Below are positions 27,668-49,773 of a DNA stretch of 64,000 nt, piece after piece (the first letter of the stretch is position 1; every line of letters starts with the position of its first letter). The notes under the pieces were generated by a model that was given only the letters and a program-made list of their open reading frames with translations, was not told the DNA's origin and made no database searches. Where the stretch lies: positions 105,241-169,240 of the forward strand of contig OY764332.1 of assembly GCA_963668425.1 (NCBI GenBank). Direction: 5' to 3'. The translations under genes were made by a program, and so were the position numbers. The DNA is from Minisyncoccota bacterium (lineage in GTDB: Bacteria; Patescibacteriota; Minisyncoccia; Phycocordibacterales; JABAAK01).

Positions 27668-27673
27668 GTACCA

Positions 27674-29614: not shown

Positions 29615-29706
29615 ATGCACCCCCCCTATTGCTCACTGCACCACAACACTGAACAACTGAAAGCAATGTCTGGTGTCAATCGCTCTATCAGTTTGCACCA
29701 CTAGGG

Positions 29707-30543: not shown

Positions 30544-30558
30544 GTAGTATACCTTGAC

Positions 30559-31005: not shown

Positions 31006-31059
31006 ATTGCAATATACAAGCGTGCCGTACCTGAGTAACGTACTTGTTGCGTTAGATTA

Positions 31060-31803: not shown

Positions 31804-32074
31804 GATATTGGTATAGAGTAACAAAAAAATAACCGATAAATATTACAGATTGCTCTGGAAAAGAATTTAATTAATGGTATTAAAATACCCGAAATTGAAA
31901 ATGGGTCTTCCTTTATTAATACTAATGTCCTTGTCAACCCAACCCAGCCCAGCTTTGGGAGGTAAGCCAGATCCAGATCCTGCGTATAGAATATACGACG
32001 GAAACCTGTCTATGGTTTCGTTTATTGTTTCCATTTTTTGTTTTTGTGGTTGCATACAAGTAGTATACCTTGAC

Positions 32075-32467
32075 CTACATCACGGCAGTAGTGGCGTTGC
32101 TGTATAGGTACATAAACGTGAGAGCGCAGATAAACACGGTAAAGAACAAATAACATTTCCAATCACTCTTCCAGGCCGACACTAAGAAATCAGACATGTT
32201 TTGACCTTCTTCTGCCTGATAGAGATTTAACAACAAGAATATAAAAGTAGAAAATAGGAAAACCATAAAAGTAGTAATGATTGAATTTAAAAAAGGGTTT
32301 TTTAATAACATGTCCCTTGAGAATATTGTTAGGTGGCTTCCAACATAGCCGCCTACTACACCCGCTAATATACCCATCACAAAAAGAGTGTTTTCCTTAA
32401 AAGTGAGTTTTTCTTTTTCCTGAATAGCGGATTCTCCCCTTTCAATGTTTTTATCTGTCTTACTCAT
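32075..32467 (-). CDS. hypothetical membrane protein (paralog of 30559..31005)
   Basis: 130 aa. MGILAGVVGGYVGSHLTIFSRDMLLKNP parallels LGVLLGVGGGLLSDYLTLFLKEDLLQSP in the paralog. Confidence 0.55.
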   Translation of the reverse strand: MSKTDKNIERGESAIQEKEKLTFKENTLFVMGILAGVVGGYVGSHLTIFSRDMLLKNPFLNSIITTFMVFLFSTFIFLLLNLYQAEEGQNMSDFLVSAWKSDWKCYLFFTVFICALTFMYLYSNATTAVM

Positions 32468-32998
32468 AGATGTATTTTTTGTTTTTTTGAGTACGGATGC
32501 TTTCTTGGATTGCCGCTCTTCTTCTCCTTTTACCCTCGCCTAACACTACCCTCACCCAGTTTTCCAACGGTGCTATGTTGTGATGGATCATTGCTGTACG
32601 AATACTCGGATGAACTGATGCACAACAGGCGGTGGTTCCAAATATCATCAAAACCGCTATAATATAAACTACAATTTTGTTTGGTAAATTGTTTTTATTA
32701 AAATTTATTATCGATACCTTTAGTATACATCACCCTGTGAAAACCGCAAGACGCAAAAACAAGCGAGTTATTCTCACTTGTTTTTTATTTATTTTTCTTT
32801 ATAGATGACAAATAGTATTAAATAGCGATATTTTTCTTATGTTAATAGTATATCCTACAACTGTTGCGCAAGAGCAAATGTTTGCTTTTTAAACAATGAT
32901 CGTTTATACTACTGGTAGTTTAGTAGAAGAGTTCCAGGCCCATTGGGATATCTGGGCTCTTTTCGTTTTAATACGTCATCATCAGGCACTATAGACAT

Positions 32999-33436
32999 AT
33001 GTCTCTTTGGAAAAAAATTAAAAATGTTATTCTTGGATCTTTGCTTTTTCCTCTCAAAGAGTATGGTCTTGCACTCAAGATTTGTGTAGGAAACATGGCA
33101 GCTTTACCATTCCTGGTAACTGTGGCTTACTATGTGGAGAAATCGGGTCGGGAAATACCCCTTGACTTTATATCCGTATTGCTCAAAACCTTCTTCATAT
33201 CTTTCACTTGCTATCTATGCCTTATTTTTGGAAAGATTTTTCGTAATCGGATTCTTATTATTTTTTCTGGTTATCTTCTTTTTTCTATTCTTTTTATTTA
33301 TGTTATAATTTGGGTACATCTGTATGGAATGGTGTGTAATATTTCAAAGATGAAGACAGAACAGAGCGTAGTAAATCGTTATTCAGCTAAGGCTTTTTGC
33401 CTCCCGCACACCACATATGCACATCTCTTTTTATAA
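32999..33436 (+). CDS. hypothetical polytopic membrane protein
   Basis: 145 aa, four predicted TM helices. Confidence 0.45.
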   Translation: MSLWKKIKNVILGSLLFPLKEYGLALKICVGNMAALPFLVTVAYYVEKSGREIPLDFISVLLKTFFISFTCYLCLIFGKIFRNRILIIFSGYLLFSILFIYVIIWVHLYGMVCNISKMKTEQSVVNRYSAKAFCLPHTTYAHLFL

Positions 33437-33529
33437 AAGTAACACAAAAAGAAAAATACACGGAGTTTTCCGTGTGTTTTTCAGATGAGTGAGCGCACTC
33501 TGGTTGTGTTACTTACACTAGGCAGATTT

Positions 33530-34057
33530 TTATGTGCACCTCGGATTGCTTCCACTTGTGCTGGCAGGACTTCCGTTCAACGACCCCAAGAACCCGTTAT
33601 AGTCCGTGCAGTAGATATCGTTCCCACTACCTCCTGTTCCATCAGCGTCTGGCAATGCACCCCAAACAACCCATTTACCACGGTTTGCATAACAACAAAT
33701 CTCTCCTGCTGAAACTCCTGATTTCAATCCGCTTGTGCCAATAAGGTCGCCCTTCGCACACACAGCACTTCCATCCCATTTATCCCAACTGTCTTTTTGA
33801 CCAGAGATTTTTTCGTAGATGTTGTCGCACAAAGTATCTCCGGTGAGGTTTGTGTTTATTGCGGTTTCAGCAAAAGCCAGTGTGCGGATACTGGACACTC
33901 CCAATTTTGCACTGCTCTTTCCAGCGTTTCCTGTCTGAGTGCCGATGGAAACGATTACCGTTGTGGCAAGGACACCGATGATTGCGATAACAATAAGAAG
34001 TTCTATAAGGGTAAATCCTTTACTGCTATTGAGATTTTTCCTGTAGTAGTTTTTCAT
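33530..34057 (-). CDS. type IV pilin (paralog 1 of 3)
   Basis: KGFTLIELLIVIAIIGVLATTVIVS prepilin motif. Cys-containing variable C-domain. Confidence 0.85.
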   Translation of the reverse strand: MKNYYRKNLNSSKGFTLIELLIVIAIIGVLATTVIVSIGTQTGNAGKSSAKLGVSSIRTLAFAETAINTNLTGDTLCDNIYEKISGQKDSWDKWDGSAVCAKGDLIGTSGLKSGVSAGEICCYANRGKWVVWGALPDADGTGGSGNDIYCTDYNGFLGSLNGSPASTSGSNPRCT

Positions 34058-34077
34058 ACAGTGATCTTTATTGTTCA

Positions 34078-34647
34078 TTACTCACAACTTTCAATTGTGG
34101 CGGCATTACTGTTACCTACCACCCCCTCTCCTTTTTTGACTGTCTTGTTGTTTCTGGTATCATTGCCACTATTGGCAAGAGTAAACTTACCTAAAAATCC
34201 ACCGCTGTCAGCACAATACACCTCACCGGTGCCTGCCCCGTTGCCGCTTAACTTTGCCCACAGTACCCATTTTTCATTTTTTGATGAACAACATATCTCT
34301 CCAGCAACACCAGCAACACTATCGGCTTTACATATTTGATTAGCGTCAGTACCTTCATTCCCCCAAGTCCACTTGGTCTTCTCACCAGAGACCTTTGGGT
34401 ATATCTCATCGCAGACACCATTGGCACCGTAGCCACCCCCAATAACTGTTACGGTCGCAATAGTCCTCAAACTGGACACACCACTTTTTACTGAGGAGAT
34501 TTGTGCCTTCTCTGTTTGACTTCCCAGTGAGACCACGACCGTTGCCGCCAGCACGCCTATGATTGCGATGACAATAAGCAACTCGATTAAGGTAAATCCT
34601 TCGCTGTGCCTCGTGCCACTAAAGTTTTGCTGCCATATTTGCAACAT
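34078..34647 (-). CDS. type IV pilin (paralog 2 of 3)
   Basis: EGFTLIELLIVIAIIGVLAATVVVSLGSQT is identical to the next paralog through the N-terminal helix. The C-domain is divergent. Confidence 0.85.
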   Translation of the reverse strand: MLQIWQQNFSGTRHSEGFTLIELLIVIAIIGVLAATVVVSLGSQTEKAQISSVKSGVSSLRTIATVTVIGGGYGANGVCDEIYPKVSGEKTKWTWGNEGTDANQICKADSVAGVAGEICCSSKNEKWVLWAKLSGNGAGTGEVYCADSGGFLGKFTLANSGNDTRNNKTVKKGEGVVGNSNAATIESCE

Positions 34648-34659
34648 ACAAGTGCTTTA

Positions 34660-35199
34660 TTACTTGCACGTTTCAAGCACCACATCTGCGTCACTTCCGT
34701 CACTTTTTACCACGCTTTTGGCACTGGCACTATCTTGATCAAGCGTAACACTTCCTGCAAACCCAGTGCTGTCTGCACAGTAAACTTTTCCGGTTTCGGC
34801 TGCTCCCCAGAGCACCCACTTTTCAGGACTACTGCCTGTAGCGGCTACTGATGAACAGCAAATCTCACCACCTCCAAGCGGCTCATTTGCTTTACACTCA
34901 GCAGCAGGAGTGGCCTTGCCCCAAGTCCAGTCATCCTTTTCTCCCGAAACTTGCGGAAGTATTAGTTCACAAACCTTGTCGTTAACACCAAGTGATGTGT
35001 TACCAACTTTGCCCTCAACAACTGCAATTGTCGCAAGGTTTCTAATACTGGATACGCCGATCTTTACCGACCCCTGCTGGGCTTTATCTGTTTGCGAGCC
35101 AAGAGAAACGACCACTGTCGCCGCCAACACTCCGATGATTGCAATCACAATCAGCAATTCAATCAGTGTGAATCCTTTTTTGTATTTTTTATTAAACAT
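34660..35199 (-). CDS. type IV pilin (paralog 3 of 3)
   Basis: MFNKKYKKGFTLIELLIVIAIIGVLAATVVVSLGSQT. Classical short basic leader. Confidence 0.85.
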   Translation of the reverse strand: MFNKKYKKGFTLIELLIVIAIIGVLAATVVVSLGSQTDKAQQGSVKIGVSSIRNLATIAVVEGKVGNTSLGVNDKVCELILPQVSGEKDDWTWGKATPAAECKANEPLGGGEICCSSVAATGSSPEKWVLWGAAETGKVYCADSTGFAGSVTLDQDSASAKSVVKSDGSDADVVLETCK

Positions 35200-35407
35200 A
35201 CTTAAATATTACTTATAATTATTAACGTTTTTAGTGTACCATCCCCCAAAATCCCCACCACACCACCCCTGTGGATAACCACCACCTACCCTTTTCCGCC
35301 AAAAATTTCTATTGTTTGGCACATCTATGACATAAAACTACCTCAACTAGTAATACCCTCTGTAAAATAAGTATTGAATTATATTTCGTTTGTGCCATAA
35401 TTCATTT

Positions 35408-36226
35408 ATGAACCAGGAAAATAAAGTTAACAAAGATGATTTAAAGAAGGTTGGAAAAATAGGATTTGAGCACAATGGGAAAAAATATAACCTGTTTCGC
35501 TATTTTTGGTCTCCAGACAAAGCGGAAGGAGATCTTGAAATAGCAATAACCATTCCTAAAAAATATACAAACATTACAGATAGTGTTTATTATCTTAAAA
35601 GGTTGCGTGCTGGAAAAGTTGTAGAAAGGCATAAAAGTTACTCAAAACTTCTTAAAATAAGTTTTCATAGTAGTGGTGCATATCATATTTCTGGGGAAAA
35701 CATGCCAAACAGAAGTAAAAACCCTTATGCGATGGGAGCATCATTTGGGGGATATTCTGGTGCACCACTTGGTTTCATGTACACAGATGACTTATCATCA
35801 TTTATGCATAGTGGGAATATAACCGATGATTTAAACACACGCTTTATTGTTGACAGCGGGCACTCAACTATTTTCGTTGCACTGTATAGAGTAGAAAATA
35901 CTTTATACAGGAGAAAAGACGGTATGGGCATTGCTGAAGAACTTAGAGATCATATCATTAGCAGTCTTGAAAGAGACAAAGATAGAATTGGCATATGTTT
36001 GGAAGACCCTTACTTTATTCCGCTAGATTATCCAGGGAACACAGACCATATATTCCTACTAGCTTGCTTCCGTGGAAATCCCAAACCAAAAGAAATAATG
36101 GAAGGAACTTTTGTCGGAACATATGCCTACGAGGCAGATGGCGATGCCTTGTCCCTGTATGTTAACAGAGATGATGAGAAAGTTCCTGAAATCAAGCGGC
36201 GCCCCAGGATACCGCTTGCATTTTAA
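35408..36226 (+). CDS. hypothetical protein
   Basis: 273-aa ORF (MNQENKVNKDD start), no recognised motif. Confidence 0.45.
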   Translation: MNQENKVNKDDLKKVGKIGFEHNGKKYNLFRYFWSPDKAEGDLEIAITIPKKYTNITDSVYYLKRLRAGKVVERHKSYSKLLKISFHSSGAYHISGENMPNRSKNPYAMGASFGGYSGAPLGFMYTDDLSSFMHSGNITDDLNTRFIVDSGHSTIFVALYRVENTLYRRKDGMGIAEELRDHIISSLERDKDRIGICLEDPYFIPLDYPGNTDHIFLLACFRGNPKPKEIMEGTFVGTYAYEADGDALSLYVNRDDEKVPEIKRRPRIPLAF

Positions 36227-36245
36227 CAAGTGTTACGTTTTCAAT

Positions 36246-36446
36246 ATGGTTGGTAGTGTTTCTGGCATCGCACTATTCGCATTACTTATAGTACCGCTAA
36301 CAGTGTTGTTGGTGAATACCCTCTTTAGATTGTGGGAATATGCTTTTGATAAATCAGTTCGTTTTGCCGCTATTTTATCTTGCACAATCCCCTTAGTGTT
36401 GCTTGCAGAGTTGCTTTGTTGGGCTAGACTGTTTGGGTGGTATTAG
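36246..36446 (+). CDS. small 2-TM protein, 3' portion shared with 43306..43641 (left direct repeat)
   Basis: LFRLWEYAFDKSVRFAAILSCTIP is identical to the paralog. About 95 bp of DNA identity (36322-36416 vs 43515-43609). Confidence 0.5.
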   Translation: MVGSVSGIALFALLIVPLTVLLVNTLFRLWEYAFDKSVRFAAILSCTIPLVLLAELLCWARLFGWY

Positions 36447-36451
36447 TTTTA

Positions 36452-37147
36452 TTACTGTATCTTATTCATCCCTCCGCTAACAGCATTAGCGACAATTTCA
36501 AGCGGTGTACCCATTTTATCTTCTTTTGTGTGTGGAGGGGTTGTGATAAATTCAACAACTTTACTGGCTAGCAAAGGTCTTATCTCTTGATCTTCAACAC
36601 TTCTGAGTACATTATAGTAACTTTGTGCTAACACTTGTCTATGCTTCATATCAATAAATAAATTTCTGTACAAAGAATATTGCCTGGCACAAAAGTAGAG
36701 AGCGTAGACCGCAACACCAGTTATGGTCAATCCGCTCAACCGAAATTCCCAACTGATGTTATATTTCACACAGTAAAAAAAATACAGAACAGAGATAGCG
36801 AAAGTCATCAATACCATAAATGTAGTTGCTCTGAGCCATTTATCACGATCCTCCCTATACCCAGATCCGGCTTTTTCAAAAGCATCAGCTAATTTCTTCG
36901 TCTGAAAGATGTCTATTTGTTTTTTTAGAGAGACATTCTTGTCAGACAGATTGTCCACCTCAGACCGCTTTGATTTTATTTCGTTTGTTAAATTTCCTAT
37001 TTCAGTATCTTTGTTCTTATTCTCTTCCCGAAGTGATTCACGCTCCTCCTCAAGTGCTTTGACCTTTGCATCTAAGTGCTCAATTTTACCTTCTTTTCCA
37101 CTCAAGAGCTGCTCCCAATACTCCCTATTTCTTCTTTGTGCGTTCAT
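36452..37147 (-). CDS. coiled-coil membrane protein, candidate effector partner of the OLD-family ATPase
   Basis: 231 aa from ATG 37147: N-terminal coiled-coil, two TM helices, 80-aa C-domain. Directly downstream of the ATPase gene. The TGTATAAT motif sits 12 nt upstream of the ATG. Track start 37264 is an alternative. Confidence 0.55.
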   Translation of the reverse strand: MNAQRRNREYWEQLLSGKEGKIEHLDAKVKALEEERESLREENKNKDTEIGNLTNEIKSKRSEVDNLSDKNVSLKKQIDIFQTKKLADAFEKAGSGYREDRDKWLRATTFMVLMTFAISVLYFFYCVKYNISWEFRLSGLTITGVAVYALYFCARQYSLYRNLFIDMKHRQVLAQSYYNVLRSVEDQEIRPLLASKVVEFITTPPHTKEDKMGTPLEIVANAVSGGMNKIQ

Positions 37148-37301
37148 ATACCCAATTATACACCAAGCGATAACAGTGCACCATATCCCCGCCTGAAATA
37201 CAACAATCGCACAAACCAGCGACCGTCTCGGACAACCACCCCACGCACAACACAAAACTCTCACTCCTGTTTTTTAAGCACTCTCTTATCTATTCAAGCC
37301 C

Positions 37302-38408
37302 TCAAGAGGTGGGCTTCTGTTGGAGTATGTCTCGCAGGTATTTTATTGCACCTTTCTTTACATCTTCAGTAATTTCAGGTGTTTGCTTACCAGTTTCTCT
37401 ATTAGATTTTTTTGTTTTATGTGCCACACCTCTCCTTATATCAAAAATTTTGATGTCCTTTATTTCTTCTTTTTTGAATTTAACTTCTGTTTCAGGTTCC
37501 TCTGCCTTTTGATATAATTGTAAAAAATAATCTGTTGAAACTACGCCAAAAATCAGATAGTTAATCTCTGCATCTGATCTGTAATTCAATACGCCAAATT
37601 TATCCTCCATCTCTTTCACATCAGTTGAATAATTTTTCTCAGGATTTCTAAACACTTCATAGATTTTCTGCCCACTGCCAAGCTCTATGAAATATGGATC
37701 GTGTGTGCTGATGATAATGTTGATGTTGTTGTTTTTGCTACGGGATAGAGTGGAGAGCGCTTCGTACAGACTCTTTTTTAAGCGTGGATGCAGGTATATT
37801 TCTGGTTCTTCAAACAAAATAAATATTTCATCATCACTTACACCGACCTTCCCTAGTTCTTGGATTACAGAAGCAACAATGAGACGTTGTGTCCCTTGAC
37901 TCGCATCTCCGATTGCCAAAGGTGATGAATCTTTTGATTTGTCATGCGTGTCTAACACTTTTGCTTCAAGCACCTTCTTTACAACGGCATCATGAATGGA
38001 TTTTTTTACATCATCTTTAGTAAGCTTCTTCTGAGTTAGTTGCAATTCGGCACCAATAACATCAAAATTTTTGAAGGTTTCTGATATGCTACTAAATAAT
38101 TCGGTTATTTCCTTGTAATTTATTTTAGGCATACTTTTAACTGTTATATTTATAAGTTCAGCGATGGCAGAATGCATAGGGTCAGAAATGGCACTAGTCT
38201 TCATTTGCTCCTCTGCATTAATTTTTTCTGCGGGTATATAAATAACTTTTCCTGCCTTGCTTTCTTTTATCTTCTTTTGTATCGCATTCATTAAATGAGT
38301 TTTCCCGGCATTATTTTCTCCAGCAAATATCGTATAAGGGGCAAGGTCAATCCCATCAATTTTCTCTGTAATACTACTGTCCTTCTGTGGAGATATGGTT
38401 ATTTTCAT
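37302..38408 (-). CDS. OLD-family ABC-type ATPase (AAA_15/AAA_21-like), no TOPRIM
   Basis: Walker A FAGENNAGKTHLMNAI, long coiled-coil insert, D-loop/Walker B region ILFEEPEIYLHP, and H-loop IIISTHDP typical of OLD/PtuA/GajA-like ATPases. Confidence 0.75.
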   Translation of the reverse strand: MKITISPQKDSSITEKIDGIDLAPYTIFAGENNAGKTHLMNAIQKKIKESKAGKVIYIPAEKINAEEQMKTSAISDPMHSAIAELINITVKSMPKINYKEITELFSSISETFKNFDVIGAELQLTQKKLTKDDVKKSIHDAVVKKVLEAKVLDTHDKSKDSSPLAIGDASQGTQRLIVASVIQELGKVGVSDDEIFILFEEPEIYLHPRLKKSLYEALSTLSRSKNNNINIIISTHDPYFIELGSGQKIYEVFRNPEKNYSTDVKEMEDKFGVLNYRSDAEINYLIFGVVSTDYFLQLYQKAEEPETEVKFKKEEIKDIKIFDIRRGVAHKTKKSNRETGKQTPEITEDVKKGAIKYLRDILQQKPTS

Positions 38409-38530
38409 ATAGTTTCAGTATACCAAGCAGTGTCGGAATTTCAAAATGTTCTTTGCCATCTTCTTGCATGTTTTTTCTTGTATTTTGTCTATATCGTCAT
38501 CTACAGATTGCACAAACCTCACCTATTCCA

Positions 38531-38568
38531 ACGCAAAACGGTTAAAAGGGTGTCTATAGCAATCGCGC
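38531..38568. repeat. 38-bp conserved element B, copy 1, upstream of the ATPase gene
   Basis: CAAAACGGTTAAAAGGGTGTCTATAGCAATCGCGCCAC, identical to 42226-42263. Confidence 0.8.
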
Positions 38569-38646
38569 CACCACCACTTTTCATCAAAACCAACACACAG
38601 CATAAAACTACTCCCCTCTTTATACATTCCTACATTTTTTAAACCT

Positions 38647-39117
38647 TTAGTCCGTTTTATTCATTGACTGCCTTTTAAACTCCTTATAGTTTATACAAGA
38701 AAATCTTTTTTCTAGGAGCGCCTTCTGTAATTTCTTGTCATTTGTCACGCAAGTGTACTCACCGGGATAACGTTCTACAGCGGCCATTATGTGTGCGTCA
38801 CATATACCTCTTCCGTTCATTATGTCATATTCAATATTAGTAGCAAATGCAGATTTTAAGTGCCCAGCGAACTGAATGTCACTATTGGTTTTTATAATAT
38901 TATTTTGGGGTATACTGCTCCACAATTTATGACGATTTTGAATATCTCTCTCTTTCTCCTCTGGTGAAATATCTTTGGCAATATTAATGTAATCGTGTAT
39001 AAATTCTTTTTTACATACTCCAACAGTGTATATAGACATAAAATCAATACGTTCCTCAAAATTATTTTCCTCGCTTAATTTAACTAGGGCACAGCTGTCA
39101 AAAATGAATTTGTTCAT
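38647..39117 (-). CDS. PIN-like domain protein
   Basis: N-terminal FIFDSCALV and C-terminal GICDAHIMAAVERY...CVTNDKKL follow the PIN acidic-residue pattern. 4-nt overlap with the upstream gene. Confidence 0.5.
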   Translation of the reverse strand: MNKFIFDSCALVKLSEENNFEERIDFMSIYTVGVCKKEFIHDYINIAKDISPEEKERDIQNRHKLWSSIPQNNIIKTNSDIQFAGHLKSAFATNIEYDIMNGRGICDAHIMAAVERYPGEYTCVTNDKKLQKALLEKRFSCINYKEFKRQSMNKTD

Positions 39118-40319
39118 AGGCCATGTTCACGCTTAACATTGCGCAAAAACAATCTAGCATCCTTTTTGTCGCCACTAAAAGAAATAAGGTTCGCTGTTTC
39201 TTTCTCCCCCACCTTATTAAGATTACTACTAAGTAATTCCTTCGGATAAAAATGAGCAAATGCTTTCATCAAAGATTGACCCCCTTTGCTTTTCTTTTTT
39301 TTCGTTTCATCAGATGGACTAGTCGGTCTTTCTTCACAGATACTCACATACCTTTCTTTATCACTCTTACAGAACAAGAACCATACTAAGAAGGAGGGTG
39401 AAACACCGTAATCTTTTGCGAGCAACTTTGCGTCCTCCCATGAAACAATTTTCTCCTGTAATTGCTTGATTTCTTTATCATCAAAAAGAAGAAAGCCCAC
39501 AAAATCAAATGATTCGTTTTTTATTTCCCTGTATTCGTCATTGTGATACAAAGCAATGGCATTGCTACCAATGCCAATTGAGTGTAACAATGCCAATGCG
39601 GTTACTATCCTTCTCTCAAAAGAAATTATTTTTGAATTTACCAATATTGCAGCAGATCTACCTGATTCAGAAATCACAGACAAGCCGTCAAATGTAGCGC
39701 TATCAGGTAGTTTTTCAGGCATGACGCCGTTTCTATTGTGTGACCTGAACACTGGCACGCCGACACCATTTATTTTTTCCATTACGTAATTGAATCTTTG
39801 ACTGGGCTCTTTGATTGATCGAAATTCTGACAGGGTAAGGTTAAGTATCTCTCTCACTGTCACTGCAGCATCCCATGGACTTTTTTTGTGCAGAAGTCCA
39901 ATAAAATTACCGTTCTCCACCCCATAACTGATATTGTTTGATATGTATTGGCTTATCCTTTGAAGTGAATACTGTTCAGCGCCTCCACCACTCCTTATAT
40001 GGCCATAATATTTTACATTTTCCATCCTATACTTCTCCGCTTTAATAATTTTTTCCTCTGGCACAAAAATGTATGACCATTTTTCTTTGAATATTCTTTT
40101 TAAATCAGAAAATGTAATATCATTGCGAGTACCATCTCTAATCTGTCTTATAATCCCAGGCGTTTTTTCTGTTCCTAGCCCCCTTTTTATGTTGAATACT
40201 TTGTGCAAACGCAAAATTATATCTTTTGGAACACTAAAATGAAACGCATTCCTATAGTAGACATCAATCATACTAACATCTAAGGTGTGTATAAAGAGTG
40301 TTTGTTGTTTTGTTTTCAT
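39114..40319 (-). CDS. hypothetical 401-aa protein translationally coupled to the PIN-like gene
   Basis: No HExxH or nucleotide-binding motif found. Operon partner of the PIN-like protein. Confidence 0.45.
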   Translation of the reverse strand: MKTKQQTLFIHTLDVSMIDVYYRNAFHFSVPKDIILRLHKVFNIKRGLGTEKTPGIIRQIRDGTRNDITFSDLKRIFKEKWSYIFVPEEKIIKAEKYRMENVKYYGHIRSGGGAEQYSLQRISQYISNNISYGVENGNFIGLLHKKSPWDAAVTVREILNLTLSEFRSIKEPSQRFNYVMEKINGVGVPVFRSHNRNGVMPEKLPDSATFDGLSVISESGRSAAILVNSKIISFERRIVTALALLHSIGIGSNAIALYHNDEYREIKNESFDFVGFLLFDDKEIKQLQEKIVSWEDAKLLAKDYGVSPSFLVWFLFCKSDKERYVSICEERPTSPSDETKKKKSKGGQSLMKAFAHFYPKELLSSNLNKVGEKETANLISFSGDKKDARLFLRNVKREHGL

Positions 40320-40384
40320 ATTTGTTTGAAAAAAGCCACAATATTACTTGTGGCTCTTGTGTTCCCGCCCATGTATTTGGTCGT

Positions 40385-40594
40385 TTAATAGTTCCTTGTT
40401 GCGTCCCTGATAGAGTAGGCGGACACAAAGTCACGTGTCTCTTTTAAGGAGACCAAACGGCTTGCGACATCTACTGTTTTCACACCCTCAGTGGACATTA
40501 TCTTGACGATACTATCCTCCATCTCCTTCTTTTTCTCCTTAAGAGTGCTCAATGTATCACGTATATCCAAGTATTCTTTTATTTGTGTTTTCAT
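40385..40594 (-). CDS. small hypothetical protein (69 aa, charged/coiled)
   Basis: Short ORF downstream of the small hydrophobic ORF. Confidence 0.35.
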   Translation of the reverse strand: MKTQIKEYLDIRDTLSTLKEKKKEMEDSIVKIMSTEGVKTVDVASRLVSLKETRDFVSAYSIRDATRNY

Positions 40595-40603
40595 GTTTTT
40601 TTG

Positions 40604-40771
40604 TTAAAAATGCAAAGTCACTCCGAACAGTCCAAACACAAATACTGAAACAGACATTATAATCGTTGCCAGCACCAACTGAATGAACCCAATAAGGAGT
40701 AACCCCAATAACGCTTCAGCGCTTTCGATAGTAAAAAGCGTGCTAAAAATAAAGTCCTTTTCCATATGCAT
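40604..40771 (-). CDS. small hydrophobic 2-TM peptide (55 aa), not in the ORF track
   Basis: Hand translation: MHMEKDFIFSTLFTIESAEALLGLLLIGFIQLVLATIIMSVSVFVFGLFGVTLHF. Confidence 0.3.
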   Translation of the reverse strand: MHMEKDFIFSTLFTIESAEALLGLLLIGFIQLVLATIIMSVSVFVFGLFGVTLHF

Positions 40772-40944
40772 TTTGTTATCTTAATAATATCCGCCGTTAG
40801 GTAGACGGGGCTTCAGGAACAGTATATATCAGTGTCGGCTGGTACGCAAATGCACGATTAATCGTGTATTTACCGCGCCCCTTCTTTACCTTATTTTTGG
40901 GTTGAACCTTGCCCTCTGGTTATAGTCCGGTTTGGGTATTGAAA

Positions 40945-42171
40945 TCAATGATTTTTGTAAGCATCATAGTAACGTTGCATATCGTTTGTATTAACATTTT
41001 CTAATCCAGCCGCCCATCCCACTCTCTTTACTATATCAAAAAGTGATTCAGTATAATTCTTTTTAAGATTCTGATACATGATTGTCTCTGTAAGATTAAT
41101 GGAGTCATCAACTGAGCCATTATTAAAAGGTTCCTCGGTCTTTAAACTTAAGTTTGTTTCATTAGGGATGTTTCCAAATGGAACATTTTCAATATTGTCC
41201 AGTGATACCTTTAATTCAAGAAAGCCCCAGTACCCAATCTCTGCATAAAACTCTATGGCTGACGCGAGGAATAGATCAAGGCGAGATAATAAGTGCCCAA
41301 GATGAAAAACATCATGCCCGCCTTCTGTGTCTTTTTTAGAACGAATTTTTGTTTTGTGATAGTAAAAACCATATTGATTCAGTTCATCGTAGAGCAATCC
41401 AAGAATAGAGTGCTGAAAAAGCCGACAAAACCCATGTTGCACTGGTGAAAATATACAGTCGGAATTGTTGCGTGGGAGTGGAAACTGGACGACGCCCCAT
41501 CTACTAACCTGCATCTTTGTTAATATATTATTAGGGAGTTCCTGGTAGTCAGCCAGTATGTCAAATGGATACAGCGGGACAATACTGAAAGAGGTATCTA
41601 TACACCTTGGGTCTTGTTTGAACCTTTTACATAACACAACAGATCTTTCCTTTGCGGATTGATAAAAAGATTCTTTTAATTCAGTGGATTTTTTGCGCTT
41701 TTCAGTAAGCCAAAGTATCCTGTCAACATTTGCCAACTCTTCTGGCTCGTTGCTTGTATCAGTCCTGATATACACCTTTGTATTGTCTTTGATTGCGTGC
41801 GGTGTTGTATCGCTTTGCGGTACCCTGATCACAATCAAAGCATTCTCTTCCTTTTCATCTGAACAAATTTGCACTTCAGGGAAAATCGGAGGGGTGATTC
41901 TTCCAAGCACAATATTATTAATTCGCTCCCGTAGACCCTTTTTATAAGCAATACCCTGTACAGGCAATTCTGGTGTACTATCTTTGTCCTCAACACCAAT
42001 TATAATAACCCCTCCCCATGTATTAGCCATAGCAGCCATGGTTTTTGGCAAACTTGCATTATTGATTTCTCGTTTGTAATCAAGATGTATTGATTCTCGG
42101 TGTTTTTCTTCGCAGAAATCAATCACATCCTGATAGGTGATTTCTTCAATTTTTTTGGTGTATAGCAACAT
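40945..42171 (-). CDS. AlbA_2 (Schlafen-like divergent AAA) domain protein
   Basis: N-terminal YQDVIDFCEEKHRESIHLDYKREI...MANTWGGVIIIGVEDK resembles PF04326. C-terminal 270 aa unknown. Element B lies 55 nt upstream. Confidence 0.55.
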   Translation of the reverse strand: MLLYTKKIEEITYQDVIDFCEEKHRESIHLDYKREINNASLPKTMAAMANTWGGVIIIGVEDKDSTPELPVQGIAYKKGLRERINNIVLGRITPPIFPEVQICSDEKEENALIVIRVPQSDTTPHAIKDNTKVYIRTDTSNEPEELANVDRILWLTEKRKKSTELKESFYQSAKERSVVLCKRFKQDPRCIDTSFSIVPLYPFDILADYQELPNNILTKMQVSRWGVVQFPLPRNNSDCIFSPVQHGFCRLFQHSILGLLYDELNQYGFYYHKTKIRSKKDTEGGHDVFHLGHLLSRLDLFLASAIEFYAEIGYWGFLELKVSLDNIENVPFGNIPNETNLSLKTEEPFNNGSVDDSINLTETIMYQNLKKNYTESLFDIVKRVGWAAGLENVNTNDMQRYYDAYKNH

Positions 42172-42225
42172 ACTTTACTGTACCCTAATTTGACCTTTTT
42201 TATCAAGGGCAAGGTTTGCCCCATG

Positions 42226-42263
42226 CAAAACGGTTAAAAGGGTGTCTATAGCAATCGCGCCAC
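42226..42263. repeat. 38-bp conserved element B, copy 2, upstream of the AlbA_2 gene
   Basis: Identical to 38531-38568. Followed by an ATCTCAACCAATGACAACC motif that recurs at 43731. Confidence 0.8.
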
Positions 42264-42407
42264 TTACGATTAGATTCTTGGTTGAAATACAGCAATTATC
42301 TTGCCACACCATTTACGACCTGGCACCATCTCAACCAATGACAACCTTTCTTTGTAAAAGAGATTTTTGTTTAGTGCATGGATTTAATAATCTAGTGCAA
42401 CAGTAAA

Positions 42408-43190
42408 TTACTTATTTCGAATTATGTTCCACAAGCATTCTCTATCTTCGGCATTTAATACTTCAGAAAGGTGATCAAATTCAAGTACTATAGATGCGAA
42501 ATACCTTTCTATCTCTTTTAAATCTTTTGACACTTCTTCCTCCTTGGAGAAAGTGTGGTTTGGGTGAATGTACCTACTACAATTTTGATAAAGCGCTGAA
42601 AAAACATATCGTTCTTTTTTAGTGTCCTCAGTTTCAAAAGCTTGTATTGCTTGTTCATAAATGCTTTTTTTTGCAATTGATTTTAACAAAGGATTGTCAT
42701 TGATTTCTTTCTCGTGCTCTTGTATTTTTGCATTAGCTTCTGACTCCCCTTCTTTGATTTTTTTCTCAGTTTCTGCAATATCTTTAAGATCCTGTTCGGT
42801 TGTTTTAGGATTTTCTTTCATCTCTTTCAGAGATTTTTTTCTTGCTTTCCAATGGCGTAACCCTTCATTGCAAAATTTTAATTCAAAAGCCCTAACTACC
42901 CTCTCCTGCTCTTCCATAGTTTTGTACTCTGAAACATGTTTCTTGATTAGAAGTATTTTTATAAGTACTTCCAGTAAAACCCTGAGCAATACTGCATTTG
43001 TTTTTGCATATCTATTATTATTTTTTGTATTATTTTCTGCTAATGTTATTATTTCTACAGCATACTCAAACAACTCACATATCTTATCAAGCACTGCCTG
43101 TGATTGTATTAGGGCAACCTTTACTTTTGAAGGTTTGCTGATAATGCCGTCTCCGATATTTATTAACTTATTTATTGTTTTATCTGACAT
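42408..43190 (-). CDS. hypothetical protein
   Basis: 260 aa from MSDKTINKL. Charged, helical, no motif. Confidence 0.45.
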   Translation of the reverse strand: MSDKTINKLINIGDGIISKPSKVKVALIQSQAVLDKICELFEYAVEIITLAENNTKNNNRYAKTNAVLLRVLLEVLIKILLIKKHVSEYKTMEEQERVVRAFELKFCNEGLRHWKARKKSLKEMKENPKTTEQDLKDIAETEKKIKEGESEANAKIQEHEKEINDNPLLKSIAKKSIYEQAIQAFETEDTKKERYVFSALYQNCSRYIHPNHTFSKEEEVSKDLKEIERYFASIVLEFDHLSEVLNAEDRECLWNIIRNK

Positions 43191-43305
43191 TTTGTGTACG
43201 CATAGTGTAGTATATTTTTGTGTTTCAGGCAAAAGAAATTTTGTTCAATCTTGGTATTTTCTAAATGTTCGGAGGTTGGATTGTGAAGTATAATCTAAAC
43301 ATACC

Positions 43306-43641
43306 ATGAAACAAGAGAAGATACAATGTGTTCTAAAAGCTGTGTTGCGTTGGTTGTTTTGCTGGATACCGCTTGCATTTTTGATAGGTGTAATGTCATT
43401 GCTCCTGCTCTATGTTTTCGGTTTCTATTATGATAGTGATGTTTCCGGTTTCTATGATAGTGATGTCGTACCATTCACGCTGCCTGCAGTGCCCTTAATG
43501 GTATTGGTGGTGAATATCCTCTTTAGATTGTGGGAATATGCTTTTGATAAATCAGTTCGTTTTGCCGCTATTTTATCTTGCACAATCCCCTTTGTGTTGT
43601 TTCTATCTCTGCTTTTTTTGTCTGTTTTGTTTGGGTGGTAG
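43306..43641 (+). CDS. small membrane protein (full-length copy carrying the right direct repeat)
   Basis: 111 aa, TM helix, DSDV repeat, then LFRLWEYAFDKSVRFAAILSCTIP shared with 36246..36446. Confidence 0.5.
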   Translation: MKQEKIQCVLKAVLRWLFCWIPLAFLIGVMSLLLLYVFGFYYDSDVSGFYDSDVVPFTLPAVPLMVLVVNILFRLWEYAFDKSVRFAAILSCTIPFVLFLSLLFLSVLFGW

Positions 43642-44071
43642 TACTTAATAACGACACTGTATGAATAAAAATTTCTAGATGTCACTATATCCGTGCTGTG
43701 AACCTCTAACTACACACCAAGTGCTGATACTATCTCAACCAACGACAACCATCCTTTATATTTTCAATCAGGAGTGAGTCAGTAAAAAATCTGTTGGAAG
43801 TTGCTTATAGGTGTAATTTCGTGGATATGGCGATGGGCAAATGTTAAAAATGCTCTTATAGCATCGAATTTCATACATATAAGGGTGGTTTTTGTAATAA
43901 TCAGACAAAAAATACTCTTATATCTCTAAAAATCAGACCTATAAGGATTTAACCCTTATTTCATAAGGCGAAACGGCTATAGAACTACAAAAACCCTATA
44001 TCTAAAGAGGATTTTATGTAGTGAAAGTATATTATAGTAGCCATCTTTTTATTGAGGAATTATATACTTAA

Positions 44072-44569
44072 TTACCCCAGCAGTCCGTTATTGACCTCTC
44101 TTTGAAACTCTTGTATGGCATACACACCAATCAAGGCACGATCAGGACTGACCTGATCCTTCAACCACTCCACTGCCTTTTTTTTATATCCACCTCCATC
44201 AAGTAGTATTATTGTTGGTACGTCTGCTTTAATAATGTTGTGCAGTAAAAAAGGATACTTCTCATCCACCGATCCTGATGACTGTTGCCATTTGCATTCT
44301 ATGACTAATCCATCATCAAACAACTCCTTATTGAAAACTATAAAATCACACTTCCTTGGAGATTCATATATTGTAGTTCCGATAGGTACTTGTTTTGAAT
44401 ACTGTTTTCCACCAATCAAACTGATGTTTTTATACAACTGATTCTTGTGATCCCGGAACTCTGTATACCCTTTGCCTATCAAAACACTTTCAATAAGCAT
44501 CTCTAAACTTTCTCCAGTTTTGTTTGCCTTTGTTCCGCCTGTATCAGTAGTTTTTGATGATGAGTTCAT
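44072..44569 (-). CDS. putative type II restriction endonuclease (PD-(D/E)xK fold)
   Basis: CDFIVFNKELFDDGLVIECKWQ gives a D-x13-E-C-K motif. Overlaps the 3' end of the Dam-family methyltransferase gene. Confidence 0.5.
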   Translation of the reverse strand: MNSSSKTTDTGGTKANKTGESLEMLIESVLIGKGYTEFRDHKNQLYKNISLIGGKQYSKQVPIGTTIYESPRKCDFIVFNKELFDDGLVIECKWQQSSGSVDEKYPFLLHNIIKADVPTIILLDGGGYKKKAVEWLKDQVSPDRALIGVYAIQEFQREVNNGLLG

Positions 44570-45425
44570 TTTCTTTTCCTCGTTGATGTGCTTTACAGGA
44601 CACCGATCTGCTCGCCTGTATTACCTCTATAGTATACTTGCTGTATAAAAAGCGTATGAGTGGTGTATCGCTATTTGAGAGCAGAAAATATGATCCAACT
44701 TTGTTTATTTCATTACAAAAATCAGCAAGTTTTTCATGCTCCTCCTTACCGAAACCTGCACCGTTGTACTGACTGTATGTTGTGTGGTACGGGGGATCAA
44801 GATAGTAAAAGGTGTTCTTTTTTGGTTTCAATTGCGTAAAATCTTTTTGTTCTATGACGGTGTCTTTTAAGGACGCAGAACAAGCACGCAGATTATCCTC
44901 ATCAAGTATTGACGGATTTTCATAAGACCCTATAGGAACATTGAAACCGCCTGACTTGTTTACTCTGTACAGACCATTGAAACAAGTTTTGTTAAGGTAT
45001 ATGAATATAGCCGCAATTTTTGCACGATCTGTTTCTGTGTTCAATCTTGCTCTCACTCTGCCGTAGTATTCTTTGTTGTGATTTTTCTTGTGCCGTTTTA
45101 GGTGCCGTACAACATCATCAACAGTATCACGAACTGCACTGTAAGTTGCTATCAGCGTGAAGTTTATATCGGACAGGTGGGCATTCTCTGGCTGTATTTC
45201 AAAAAAAAGTGCACCGCCACCAACAAATGGTTCACAATAATATCCGGTAAAGCCGACCTTTGCTTGTTCAGTCAGATGTGGCAATGCTGATCGCTTTCCT
45301 CCTACCCACTTCACGAATGGTTTAGCAGATATGTGTAAATCACTTACATCCTGACCCGCAATGGTTTGTAAAACATCATTAAATGATCCATCAATCGGAT
45401 CGTGGTGTTTTCTTTCTCGTATCAT
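44544..45425 (-). CDS. DNA adenine methyltransferase (Dam/D12 class N6-MTase)
   Basis: FVKWVGGKRSALPHL, EPFVGGGA, CFNGLYRVNKSGGFNVPIG and YYLDPPY (DPPY motif) are collinear with E. coli Dam. Confidence 0.85.
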   Translation of the reverse strand: MIRERKHHDPIDGSFNDVLQTIAGQDVSDLHISAKPFVKWVGGKRSALPHLTEQAKVGFTGYYCEPFVGGGALFFEIQPENAHLSDINFTLIATYSAVRDTVDDVVRHLKRHKKNHNKEYYGRVRARLNTETDRAKIAAIFIYLNKTCFNGLYRVNKSGGFNVPIGSYENPSILDEDNLRACSASLKDTVIEQKDFTQLKPKKNTFYYLDPPYHTTYSQYNGAGFGKEEHEKLADFCNEINKVGSYFLLSNSDTPLIRFLYSKYTIEVIQASRSVSCKAHQRGKENELIIKNY

Positions 45426-45550
45426 ATTTATTTTGTAATTACCTTGTAAGAGGTGGTAGGACTTTCAGTTATGTTTACCAGTATACCGTTGAATACATCA
45501 GTAATCTTTTCAGCCCTGCTGGTGTGTGATATACTACTAATTGAAACTAA

Positions 45551-45748
45551 TTGACACTTTTTAATAGGTTCACTGTTAATACCGCTATGAAAAAGAACAG
45601 GAAGATGACAATCAAAGAGTATGCAGAAAAAAGGAATATTGATTTTGAAAGATTATTTTCTGGTGAGAATCCAAACATATCTATGCAATCCTATCTAAAA
45701 AAAGATAGGACTTCCAAGTGTTGCAAAAGTATTTTGTATATTGAATAA
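45551..45748 (+). CDS. small ORF (65 aa), possible HTH regulator
   Basis: Divergent from the R-M pair. Ends at the left inverted-repeat terminator module. Confidence 0.3.
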   Translation: MTLFNRFTVNTAMKKNRKMTIKEYAEKRNIDFERLFSGENPNISMQSYLKKDRTSKCCKSILYIE

Positions 45749-45754
45749 CGAGAA

Positions 45755-45838
45755 AGCGTAATGCCGGTTAAGTGTCGTATCACAGCACCGAAACATACGT
45801 TGCTTAGAAAAAGGTCCGTCAGGGACTTTTTTTGTTTT
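45755..45838. repeat. inverted-repeat element, copy 1 (contains bidirectional terminator-like hairpin)
   Basis: AAGCGTAATGCCGGTTAAGTGTCGTATCACAGCACCGAAACATACGTTGCTTAGAAAAAGGTCCGTCAGGGACTTTTTTTG. Reverse complement of 52524-52606 is about 93% identical. Similarity extends about 25 bp further. Confidence 0.85.
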
Positions 45839-46030
45839 TTTACAGCATCAACGCTCTGGCAATTAGGTTCTCGACTGAAGTACAACAATTGTGCATATTA
45901 GAGGGCGGAGTGGCTCTCAAGAGGTGTGTAAAATAAGGTGATAATTTGGTTTTCAACACTTCTTGCGGAAAAAATATATTTTTGATATACTGTTAGTGAC
46001 TTGAGGTTATCTCAGGTGGCAAAACCCCTA

Positions 46031-46780
46031 TCAAAGGGGCTTTTTGTTTCTCCTTTTTCTGCCCTCTGGCAATAACCTGCAACTCCCCTCGTCGTCACGA
46101 TGGATAAGTTTTTGCTTTTCCATAGAAACCAACTTTTTTTTAAACCTGGTTTTATTTTGTTCTTTGTTCATGCCAAATAACTCTTCAAGTGTCTTATCTC
46201 CATCTTCAAGAGATAGTAATATTTCTTTTTCTGAGGTCAATCTTGGGTCAGTAATGACCTTCTTGTTGCCAACTTTGAGTATGTCAGGAAACATAATATC
46301 TGCAGATTCATCAATCTTTTGTTGTATTTGTTTGGTATCCATATCGCTGTATAGTCGTATTAGCTCAGCATATATCCATTTGGTTGCATAGAAGGTGAAA
46401 TTAGTGTCAATACGCTCCAGATTAACCCCGCCGAGGTGTGCGGCATCTCTCTCATTACGAAAACCGAGCAAGATTTTAACCAATGGAGCAACTTTTGTTC
46501 TTAGTGATACATCAGCACCTGAATTGTTTGCTAGATTATTAATAATCTTTCCAGTATCAGAAATCTGTTTGCCTATTGGGGTGAATTTTTTTGTTAAAAT
46601 ATATTCAAAAATTCGCAGTATTACCTCACAGAATTTTCCTACAGATGTTTCATGATGCTCAAAGTCACTGCTTTGATACCTACCTATCACTTTTTTGTAT
46701 TCAGCGGTCAGCGTCTTTTCTAATTCCTTTGGAATGCCCGCAAAAAGAGGGTGTTTATTTTTCTGTTTTTTTCTTGCCAT
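46031..46780 (-). CDS. DUF4145/HEPN-like protein (Rx4-6H-like motif GFRNERDAAH)
   Basis: LVKILLGFRNERDAAHLGGVNL parallels LKALDIVRITANEGGSHCGEIDL of the DUF4145 protein at 31060. Last gene of a three-gene overlapping operon. Confidence 0.5.
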   Translation of the reverse strand: MARKKQKNKHPLFAGIPKELEKTLTAEYKKVIGRYQSSDFEHHETSVGKFCEVILRIFEYILTKKFTPIGKQISDTGKIINNLANNSGADVSLRTKVAPLVKILLGFRNERDAAHLGGVNLERIDTNFTFYATKWIYAELIRLYSDMDTKQIQQKIDESADIMFPDILKVGNKKVITDPRLTSEKEILLSLEDGDKTLEELFGMNKEQNKTRFKKKLVSMEKQKLIHRDDEGSCRLLPEGRKRRNKKPL

Positions 46781-47243
46781 GTTTTTTTCTCTTACTCTTA
46801 TGGTATTTTTTAGAAATGTTTTTCAGTGAATCTTCATTGGGGAGTTGTGATACTATCTCTCTCGTGGTTGCATTTATCTTATATTTCCCATGCCCAGCAC
46901 CACTTATATACCCATATGTCCCTATGGAGTGCTGAATGTCTTTACCAATATTCCTCCCATTCATTAATGAAACCTCCGTCTCTAAAAAAGATTCTAATGC
47001 TTTTTTTTCAATGACTTCATTACTACTGCCATTGGTTAAATAATATACAGCAAGAGCGACGATAAAATAGTAGTTTTTTGTTTCTTTTTCTTGAAAAAAA
47101 GTGTCCCATTCGTTTGGGATAAGTTTTAACTCACCTTTGGTTGGGTTATTTGTTGTTCTTTCTGCAGATACTGATTGATTCTTTAACAAATCTCTAATCT
47201 CCTCCAAGAGTTTTATTATTACTTTTTCGTTTTCTGTGTTCAT
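46755..47243 (-). CDS. hypothetical protein (middle gene of three-gene operon)
   Basis: 162 aa. Overlaps the downstream gene by 26 nt and the upstream gene by 4 nt. Confidence 0.45.
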   Translation of the reverse strand: MNTENEKVIIKLLEEIRDLLKNQSVSAERTTNNPTKGELKLIPNEWDTFFQEKETKNYYFIVALAVYYLTNGSSNEVIEKKALESFLETEVSLMNGRNIGKDIQHSIGTYGYISGAGHGKYKINATTREIVSQLPNEDSLKNISKKYHKSKRKKHGKKKTEK

Positions 47244-47671
47244 TTTTCTTCTTCTTTTCTTAACTCTGCGAGCGCCTCAAGCCCTGTGTTGGTCAGTGAG
47301 TACATCCTATTCCTATGCTTGCCAGAGATAACGTCAACAAACCCTTTTTTGTGCAACCGAGCAATCACATCACTTGGGTTTCCAGGCGTTTTTTCTTTTA
47401 CGGTTTTGTAGGACTCTTGAATCGCTTTCAGGTCAAACCCATCCTTACTGTTCTCATTATCCAGTATTGACATGATCGCAAGGCACTTTTCTACGTCTGA
47501 TTCCAAGCTATATTGCAAGAAGATCTCTCGCTTGCTTAGGTTTTTTTTAATAGATGATTTCACCTCGCTGGAAGACATCTGGCTCTCTATTGCTGCAACC
47601 CTTTTTACAAGTGCATCAAAATCTTCTTTTGTTATTGTCTTTGTCGTCATAATATTTATAGCATACAGCAC
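47240..47671 (-). CDS. winged-helix domain protein (first gene of three-gene operon)
   Basis: C-terminal NPSDVIARLHKKGFVDVISGKHRNRMYSLTNTGLEAL is wHTH-like. Confidence 0.45.
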   Translation of the reverse strand: MLYAINIMTTKTITKEDFDALVKRVAAIESQMSSSEVKSSIKKNLSKREIFLQYSLESDVEKCLAIMSILDNENSKDGFDLKAIQESYKTVKEKTPGNPSDVIARLHKKGFVDVISGKHRNRMYSLTNTGLEALAELRKEEEK

Positions 47672-47958
47672 TGTTAAGAATCTGTCAATGCATCATAATA
47701 ATGTTTCTATTTTTGTTTTTTGTTGTATATGCTTTTCAGTAGATAAAAAGTATAATATTCTTATTTTACCATGGTCTATCTATATTTATTTTCAATATTT
47801 TTACAAAAATCAAAATAAAAAAATAAAATCGTTTTTTGAGTACCTTAAAAAGTATAAAAATATGTTTATTTATTAGGTTAAAATTTATCTTTTGTAACTG
47901 CTTGCTATAAAAAATAATTTTTTTGACTTCTTATTAATTTTTATGTATACTTACTCAT

Positions 47959-49755: not shown

Positions 49756-49773
49756 ATTTGTAGTATAGAGGGG

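Follow-up and report, generated by a model that had tools for sequence, protein, structure and literature searches.

A relic copy of a small membrane-protein gene and a probably homogenised core tract in an integrase-free defence hotspot of Candidatus Kaiserbacteria

The 64,000-nt stretch of contig OY764332.1 analysed here, referred to as the window, contains two same-orientation copies of a gene encoding a small membrane protein, a left copy at 36204..36446 and a right copy at 43306..43641, which share a near-identical core and bracket about 7.2 kb of accessory DNA. A first-pass annotation had interpreted this arrangement as a discrete block, either inserted into a target gene or duplicating its end. 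The comparisons reported below make a different explanation likely: the two copies would be a relic and an intact version of one accessory gene, whose core was homogenised at a later time, located within an integrase-free hotspot of Candidatus Kaiserbacteria, where sequences are turned over by a process similar to homology-facilitated illegitimate recombination (HFIR). The 7.2 kb between the repeats are a patchwork of independently exchangeable cassettes in a defence hotspot, and not a discrete mobile element. Unless a relative is named, coordinates are those of the window; the relatives are labelled L001-L005, L008 and L009.

Two copies of a small gene and their shared core

Aligned without gaps, positions 36268-36448 and 43466-43646, which lie 7198 nt apart, agree at 81% of 181 nt. 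The near-identical core (left arm 36310..36401, right arm 43508..43599, both on the + strand) matches at 90 of 92 bases and includes an exact run of 75 nt (36320-36394 = 43518-43592), so that the repeat of about 95 identical bp initially described is present, its length and identity having been slightly overstated. In 200,000 shuffles of the mismatches along the 181-nt alignment, a run of 75 nt was never obtained, the longest being 59 nt. The 64-kb window has exactly two occurrences of a 50-mer taken from the core, 100 shuffles giving an expectation of 0. The repeat is not a multi-copy family, an outcome which the first-pass annotation had named as refuting its reading. Both copies lie on the + strand, while all substantial open reading frames (ORFs) between them (36452-43232) are on the - strand; orientation, spacing and strand bias are thus those originally reported.

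The right copy (43306..43641, +) is an intact gene; its product, 111 aa long, has three hydrophobic segments, contains the invariant motif NILFRLWEYAFDK and matches no Pfam, NCBIfam or PADLOC family. Its orthologues are P0002 in L001, P0003 in L002 and P0005 in L003. The upstream region (43241..43305, +), which includes the motif GTATAAT, is also conserved upstream of the L002 orthologue, and by blastn window positions 43244-43399 match L002 684-839 at 85% identity; the right copy is probably expressed. A protein search placed the family in four 90%-identity clusters, six sequences in all, and only four genomes carry it (window, L001, L002 and L003). All six gene copies share a conserved stretch of 29 nt within the core, TTTAGATTGTGGGARTATGCTTTTGATAA, in which several synonymous positions are also unchanged; scanning genome, metagenome and viral contig collections with this 29-mer and with peptide patterns revealed no further relatives.

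The left copy (36204..36446, +), as delineated by alignments, the ORF list and a hydropathy scan, is truncated at its 5' end. Its homology to the intact 111-aa gene runs from about codon 20 onward, which bears out the early description of a 3' fragment of the right gene. It is made up of an 18-nt remnant of codons 20-26 (GGATACCGCTTGCATTTT, 36204-36221, matching 43364-43381), a TTG to TAA change producing a stop codon (36224-36226), a frame-shifting deletion of 25 nt and a residual ORF of 66 codons (36246-36446), coding for two hydrophobic helices. The position of the 18-nt remnant shows that the copy extends farther 5' than the 66-codon ORF, which should be flagged as a fragment in the annotation. 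The left relic of L003 has the same structure, with 98.5% amino acid identity.

The gene preceding the relic is a cassette gene of unknown function (35390..36226, +; 278 aa), with homologues P0086-P0089 and no Pfam match. Members of this family, 266-282 aa long, are conserved up to residue 269 (..PEIK), and P0086-P0089 end 7-18 residues later, with unrelated tails. The last 9 residues of the 278-aa protein (RRPRIPLAF) and its stop codon derive from the junction and from the small-gene remnant, the tail RRPR-IPLAF-stop being read in frame through small-gene codons 21-26. Since family conservation reaches PEIK and is followed by small-gene codons, an illegitimate joint, at about 36197-36204, must have fused the 3' end of the 278-aa gene in frame to small-gene codon ~21. 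The joint took away the promoter and the first ~20 codons of the left copy, together with the last few codons of the 278-aa gene.

Within 36218-36250 the 278-aa ORF ends with GCA-UUU-UAA-C, identical in L003, and the frame leading into the two-helix relic is open from 36111. It is pure speculation, prompted by this open frame only, that a +1 slip of tRNA-Phe at UUU-UAA-C (36221-36227) could yield a membrane-anchored fusion of ~350 aa.

Outside the core the left and right copies are only 60% (5') and 67% (3') identical, with indels, against 83 of 84 bases (99%) within the core in the same flank-versus-core comparison. The L001 and L002 orthologues are 79-86% identical to the core (66-72 of 84 bases) and 77% identical to each other over this region. 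Among codons specifying the same amino acid in the two copies, synonymous differences were found at 0 of 28 in the core versus 8 of 13 outside it (Fisher p = 1.3e-5). Constraint at the protein level alone cannot explain this identity, because the orthologues differ from the core by 14-21%. An identity tract which is sharply bounded and identical at synonymous sites, while both flanks and orthologues differ, is best read as the footprint of gene conversion (heteroduplex repair) between two copies that had diverged long before, whether or not a crossover went with it; a plain crossover between alleles so diverged would give no identity tract. The same tract is found in L003, so that the conversion would predate the separation of the two genomes. 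Window and L003 differ at one edge site, which is A at 36395 and T at 43593 in the window, and where the right copy of L003 has the left-type A.

Two other origins of the repeat were rejected. A target-site duplication, implied by the proposal that the block had duplicated the end of its target gene, is ruled out by the 60-67% identity and the indels of the flanks, and a recent tandem duplication in situ by flanks which diverge by 33-40%, against only 2-8% between window and L003.

Some indications about the history of the copies come from their context in relatives. L001, an 847-kb contig, contains a pilin cluster, a single small gene and a gene for a coiled-coil protein, which is the context of the left copy in the window; the right end of L001 is shared, at 98% identity, by L008, which runs on to dnaJ with no second copy of the small gene. 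In L002 one small-gene copy with the conserved upstream region is separated from dnaJ by 9.5 kb of other cargo, an arrangement corresponding to that of the right copy. Within the sequence recovered, each of these single-copy contexts matches only one border of the window. L002 remains homologous to the window at the nucleotide level for another 17 nt after the stop codon of the left copy, as far as 36463 in the end of the coiled-coil gene; to judge from this trace, the L002 lineage, too, seems once to have had the small gene and the coiled-coil gene as a convergent pair. The 5' flanks show weak affinities, being 67% (left) and 56% (right) identical to L001, and 70% (right) and 64% (left) identical to L002.

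The sequence of events compatible with these data would start from two anciently diverged copies in the same orientation, probably xenologues from different lineages. The left one would have been located beside the coiled-coil gene, as the single copy of L001 is, until the illegitimate joint to the 278-aa gene decapitated it; it would then have gained the stop codon and the frame-shifting deletion. Later, but before window and L003 separated, a tract of 75-92 nt in the most conserved part of the gene would have been homogenised by gene conversion. Growth and turnover of the surrounding hotspot may take place when incoming DNA is anchored on short homologous segments and joined illegitimately at the other end, by HFIR or a similar process, leaving behind truncated relic copies of border sequences. 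HFIR is proposed because such truncated border relics are what it predicts; DNA uptake is no more than hinted at by the adjoining type IV pilin genes.

The pilin-to-dnaJ hotspot and its cassettes

The whole variable interval (30544..48888) lies between a pilin-like gene (29707-30543) and dnaJ (48889-49755). Matches to DnaJ assign the host to Candidatus Kaiserbacteria, in the CPR/Parcubacteria. In L005 (GCA_001753035.1), colinear with window positions 21175-30495 and continuing directly with dnaJ at 48890, the two genes are adjacent and 18.3 kb are absent. The length of the interval is about 5 kb for L004 and 18 kb for the window, and L001 and L008 combined give about 20 kb or more. The same interval between conserved genes houses different contents in L001+L008, L002, L003, L004 and L009; that of L009 differs again from the others, and the 5-kb island of L004 contains SMODS/SLATT and no small gene. 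Recognised defence genes in the window encode a Schlafen/AlbA_2 protein, an AAA_15/21 ATPase and the pair of a PDDEXK_11 nuclease and a D12 methyltransferase. Across the genomes examined, KAP NTPase, SMODS/SLATT and HigB are also among the cargo. G+C content is 0.31-0.39 across 35-49 kb, versus 0.41-0.46 in the flanks.

ORFs across 35390-48719 were scanned with Pfam, PADLOC and NCBIfam. No integrase, transposase or recombinase family was found among those of the 35.4-48.7 kb region, and for the block proteins of unknown function low-stringency Pfam searches gave only noise. Rfam reported nothing in the block and, at gathering thresholds, only 16S rRNA and tRNA elsewhere; promoter and terminator scans gave counts not above those of shuffled sequence and were not used.

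The block begins with the gene for the coiled-coil membrane protein (36452..37264, -), convergent with the left copy and recognised by hydropathy and by matches of coiled-coil type only. The encoded protein is 69% identical to the product of the gene adjoining the single small gene of L001, and this adjacency makes it look ancestral and resident, not incoming. The gene is kept in L003 even though the neighbouring ATPase gene is replaced, with no co-variation between the two. The first-pass annotation had considered it the membrane partner of the ATPase, a role ruled out by the synteny in L001 and L003, which identifies it as a conserved neighbour of the small gene, with which it should be paired in the annotation.

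The adjacent gene encodes an ABC-type ATPase of 368 aa (AAA_15/AAA_21; 37302..38408, -), part of a variable cassette and absent at this position in L003. Its similarity is to the ATPase domains of Old, AriA and GajA: alignment to the Old profile is confined to positions 159-357 of 578, and Pfam reported no Toprim family. OLD proteins being defined by an N-terminal ABC ATPase and a C-terminal Toprim nuclease, the assignment to the OLD family does not hold, only the ATPase part being present, and the label should be dropped.

Two overlapping genes follow (38647..40319, -; 156 and 401 aa), 97-98% identical at the amino acid level in L003. They had been called a PIN pair, a label for which no support was obtained: sequence profiles, which leave the fold open, gave no PIN-type match in Pfam at E<=5 and no PADLOC or NCBIfam matches. 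The Schlafen/AlbA_2-domain protein (408 aa; 40945..42171, -), within a variable cassette absent in L003, was instead correctly labelled (PF04326, E 2.3e-18). The last gene of the block (42408..43232, -; 274 aa) is divergent from the right copy; the window protein has no direct Pfam match, and its L003 orthologue, 83% identical in amino acid sequence, carries a precomputed DUF5677 match. Just outside the right repeat lies a Type II-like restriction-modification (R-M) pair (44072..45425, -), made up of a PDDEXK_11 nuclease and a D12 N6-adenine methyltransferase (E 6.5e-38 and 1e-55), showing that defence cargo continues beyond the block. The description of the DNA between the copies as accessory, defence-type cargo is supported.

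The mosaic nature of the region is evident from L003 (ERZ21861969), derived from a different sample and 92-98% identical to the window at the nucleotide level, which has both small-gene copies in the same layout and thus retains the repeats around its block. The ATPase cassette (37259-38573) is replaced there, with no nucleotide homology between 37259 and 38438, and so are the AlbA_2 cassette (40334-42324) and the region of the R-M pair (44000-45640), where a KAP NTPase and other R-M genes are found; 2.9 kb are added after the position equivalent to 45873. In the same area, window positions 38439-38521, intergenic and upstream of the ATPase gene, are 92% identical over 83 nt to L003 4060-4143, where a 259-aa gene that the window lacks has its 5' part; this stretch is another truncated relic of cassette replacement.

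The notion of a discrete inserted block is not sustained by these data: recombinases are absent, the gene at the left end looks resident, L003 exchanges cassettes both inside and outside the repeats, and accessory DNA extends beyond them. The comparison with related genomes suggested in the first-pass annotation yielded no single-copy empty site, hybrid or deletion product among the four clusters and six sequences of the family. Direct repeats of 92 nt and 98% identity are in principle a substrate for RecA-type recombination, so that excision, as proposed, is conceivable; no deletion product was found, and a deletion of this kind would destroy the only intact copy of the small gene.

Repeats at cassette borders are not limited to the small gene. 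In L004 the last 61-76 nt of dnaJ, up to the exact stop codon, recur twice between island blocks with 94-95% identity, and the copies of this 3' end (10791-10867, 13100-13160 and 13720-13795) keep three cargo blocks apart, a clear footprint of serial insertion beside dnaJ. In L003 a perfect direct repeat of 52 nt (9002-9053 and 10394-10445) brackets a 1.4-kb module, composed of the homologue of the 274-aa gene, DUF5677-like, and the intact small gene; the corresponding segment of the window lies downstream of the right copy (43699..43750), with a degenerate copy at 42320-42356, inside which falls the breakpoint of the AlbA_2 cassette between window and L003. A repeat of 44 nt (30538-30581 and 32054-32097; 89% identical, 29 nt exact) spans the last 7 codons of two paralogous membrane-protein genes (148 and 130 aa, 28% amino acid identity) and the junction with the pilin-like gene, and brackets a 1.5-kb block with a DUF4145 gene, reproducing in miniature the architecture of the main repeat. 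Truncated relics recur in the left copy of the small gene, in the dnaJ 3' ends of L004 and in this 44-nt pair, and the main repeat is the longest example of relic border repeats seen throughout the hotspot.

A further perfect repeat, 39 nt long (GTGGCGCGATTGCTATAGACACCCTTTTAACCGTTTTGC in gene orientation; 38533..38571 and 42225..42263), extends to 44 nt at 95% identity and has sharp edges. One copy precedes the ATPase gene by 125 nt and the other the AlbA_2 gene by 54 nt; the cassettes of both genes are missing from L003, where homology resumes at 38574, right after the first copy. The repeat was not found in L001-L003; it could act as a shared operator or promoter, or mark both cassettes as coming from one donor. 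An integron or attC model of the borders was discarded, as there is no integrase and the short border repeats have no common sequence.

Additional small elements were detected in and around the hotspot. An ORF of ~53-65 aa (..MTIKEYAEKRNIDFERLF..), at 45551-45748 in the window, is 95% conserved both in L002, where it is present in a nearly tandem arrangement (6336-6557 and 6778-6995), and in L003 (13797-13901); it is always inside the hotspot, just upstream of a conserved element of ~90-125 nt, ending in a strong terminator hairpin. Copies of the latter element are found in the window at 52517-52641 (-) and 45754-45840 (+), in L009 at 957-1132 and 6362-6448, in L002 at 8975-9129 and in L003 at 13910-13980. 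The longer copy is preceded by TTGAAA-17-TATAGT, and the two window copies form an inverted repeat of 87 nt, 93% identical, around 45841-52519, which holds dnaJ and dnaK. The element matches the Rfam DUF3800-I RNA (RF02969) over its full length, below threshold (19.4 bits versus a gathering cutoff of 44.2, E 1.1); its folding z-score is -2.4, with almost no covariation among five copies. It lies just downstream of, and convergent with, a DUF3800 gene (51866-52513), and in L009 beside two DUF3800 genes.

The DUF3800 gene and the RNA-like element belong, with two small ORFs (94 and 155 aa), to a second, small variable site beyond dnaK (51793-53506), and are absent in L005; the 155-aa product is 77% identical to an L004 protein with a weak Fic-family match. 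Finally, a perfect palindrome of 28 nt (22886-22913) is located ~400 nt upstream of tRNA-Thr (23311-23384).

Alternative explanations

Several points weigh against the proposed history of relic, intact copy and conversion tract. The L002 contig ends 745 nt upstream of the small gene, where a second copy may be located. The 66-codon ORF of the left copy is open both in the window and in L003, with 4 nucleotide differences, 1 of them nonsynonymous; being intact in both genomes, it may not necessarily be a dead pseudogene. The core is common to window and L003, so that a single conversion event is visible. The order of events and the choice between xenologues and ancient duplicates depend on weak affinities in four genomes, and we infer this order, the xenologous origin and HFIR or transformation as mechanism from such comparisons.

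The insertion of a unit by a Campbell-type event is unlikely. A circular DNA carrying a full small gene, the coiled-coil gene and the cargo would have entered by a single crossover in the core of a resident small gene, truncated before or later; on this view the repeats arose from the crossover and could let the block be excised again. Direct repeats bracketing accessory DNA are what such an event would leave; a stretch of 29-31 nt within the core, invariant in all lineages, might have served as the minimal homology segment, heteroduplex repair during the crossover could have left the identity tract, and L004 shows that border fragments are indeed duplicated as this hotspot accretes DNA. However, a simple crossover between alleles 60-80% identical would not by itself generate the tract, and a single Campbell event does not truncate a copy on its 5' side, as is found on the left. 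The coiled-coil gene, which should have come with the circle, looks resident, being the syntenic neighbour of the small gene in L001; the content of the block is not inherited as a unit in L003, and neither an empty site nor a circle or deletion product has been recorded.

It is rather improbable that the core and the other border repeats of 30-90 nt are the homology anchors of an integrase-free, transformation-driven system of cassette capture and exchange, in which the left copy acts as landing pad or silent donor. If this were so, Kaiserbacteria and other bacteria of the candidate phyla radiation (CPR) would stack and swap defence modules beside their DNA-uptake pilin genes.

Selection acting on the nucleotides of the core, whether they form a cis-acting site, encode an embedded or antisense RNA or are recognised by some recombination system shuffling the cassettes, could account for the conservation of the 29-mer TTTAGATTGTGGGARTATGCTTTTGATAA in all six copies, synonymous positions included, and would fit with the other short, sharply bounded repeats found at cassette borders. 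Outside the 29-mer, however, L001 and L002 differ at many synonymous sites (66-72 of 84 bases identical), and the 29-mer itself is confined to the small-gene copies, being found neither at other cassette junctions nor in the public collections scanned. With no Rfam match in the block and no recombinase, selection of this kind is very unlikely.

A shade less probable again is the hypothesis that the headless left copy works as a silent cassette or orphan module, donating a variable C-terminal helix to the expressed right gene through the core, by analogy with Neisseria pilS/pilE or with orphan rhs and cdiA-CT modules. The relic does lack a 5' end and a promoter, the core is conserved between divergent segments, the left ORF is open in two genomes and, at the core-edge site (36395 A / 43593 T), the right copy of L003 has the left-type base. 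This last difference is equally explained by a point mutation, though, and only one donor copy is present, while no allele with an exchanged 3' segment is observed, the right copies of window and L003 sharing a 3' flank at 93% identity; moreover, with the orphan upstream of the intact gene, activation by deletion would be impossible.

An assembly artefact, i.e. a collapsed or chimeric join at the repeat, might be suspected of a metagenome-derived genome, but is scarcely credible here, as the independent assembly of L003 from another sample shows the same two copies and layout, and the flanks of both copies in the window are unique and continuous.

Comparison with known systems

What appeared to be a mobile defence island bounded by repeats would thus be a relic paralogue with a conversion tract, located in a chromosomal hotspot. 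The analysis brings to light a defence hotspot of Candidatus Kaiserbacteria, located between a pilin-like gene and dnaJ, in which each genome sampled has a different content, amounting to 0 to about 20 kb or more. The lack of integrases and the repeated border relics point to homologous or illegitimate recombination of taken-up DNA, in place of mobile elements, as the way in which the anti-phage repertoire is renewed in these uncultivated bacteria with reduced genomes, an under-studied lineage. The kinds of feature involved, i.e. hotspot islands, orphan relics and gene conversion, are already known; the lineage and the pilin-to-dnaJ hotspot are new.

Islands flanked by attL and attR sites, and inserted by an integrase, resemble the block in that same-orientation repeats bracket accessory DNA and one repeat is a partial 3' copy of a gene. 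Here, unlike in such islands, there is no integrase, the repeats lie within paralogous sequence 60-67% identical and are no clean duplication, the partial copy is upstream, that is on the wrong side, the block is a mosaic and the island extends past both repeats. An att-flanked genomic island was consequently rejected, given the lack of any recombinase family across 35390-48719, of a clean duplication, and of an empty site or movement as a unit.

In the pan-genome of E. coli, nearly all defence cargo found in hotspots is carried by recognisable mobile elements with integrases (PMC10121019). The hotspot described here is similar in its fixed chromosomal position and in a content varying from relative to relative, with low G+C; it differs in that no recombinase or mobile-element hallmark was detected in the region scanned, cassettes are swapped singly, and the host belongs to the CPR, its genome contig measuring ~0.7 Mb.

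HFIR leaving orphan 3' fragments is a published model for the arrays of type VI secretion system (T6SS), Rhs and contact-dependent inhibition (CDI) genes (PMC5361080). In these arrays, as here, an intact copy is accompanied by a relic 3' fragment that has lost its 5' part, the two have a conserved segment in common, no integrase takes part and the architecture recurs, in the present case in the dnaJ 3' relics of L004. In the window, however, the relic lies upstream of the intact gene and not downstream, the product is a 111-aa membrane protein and not a polymorphic toxin, and the truncation took place through a separate joint with the 278-aa gene.

The locus also corresponds to intragenomic gene conversion between dispersed paralogues (concerted evolution), where diverged paralogues a few kb apart likewise share a sharply bounded tract without synonymous differences; nothing essential differs, the tract being short here (75-92 nt) and one event being visible.

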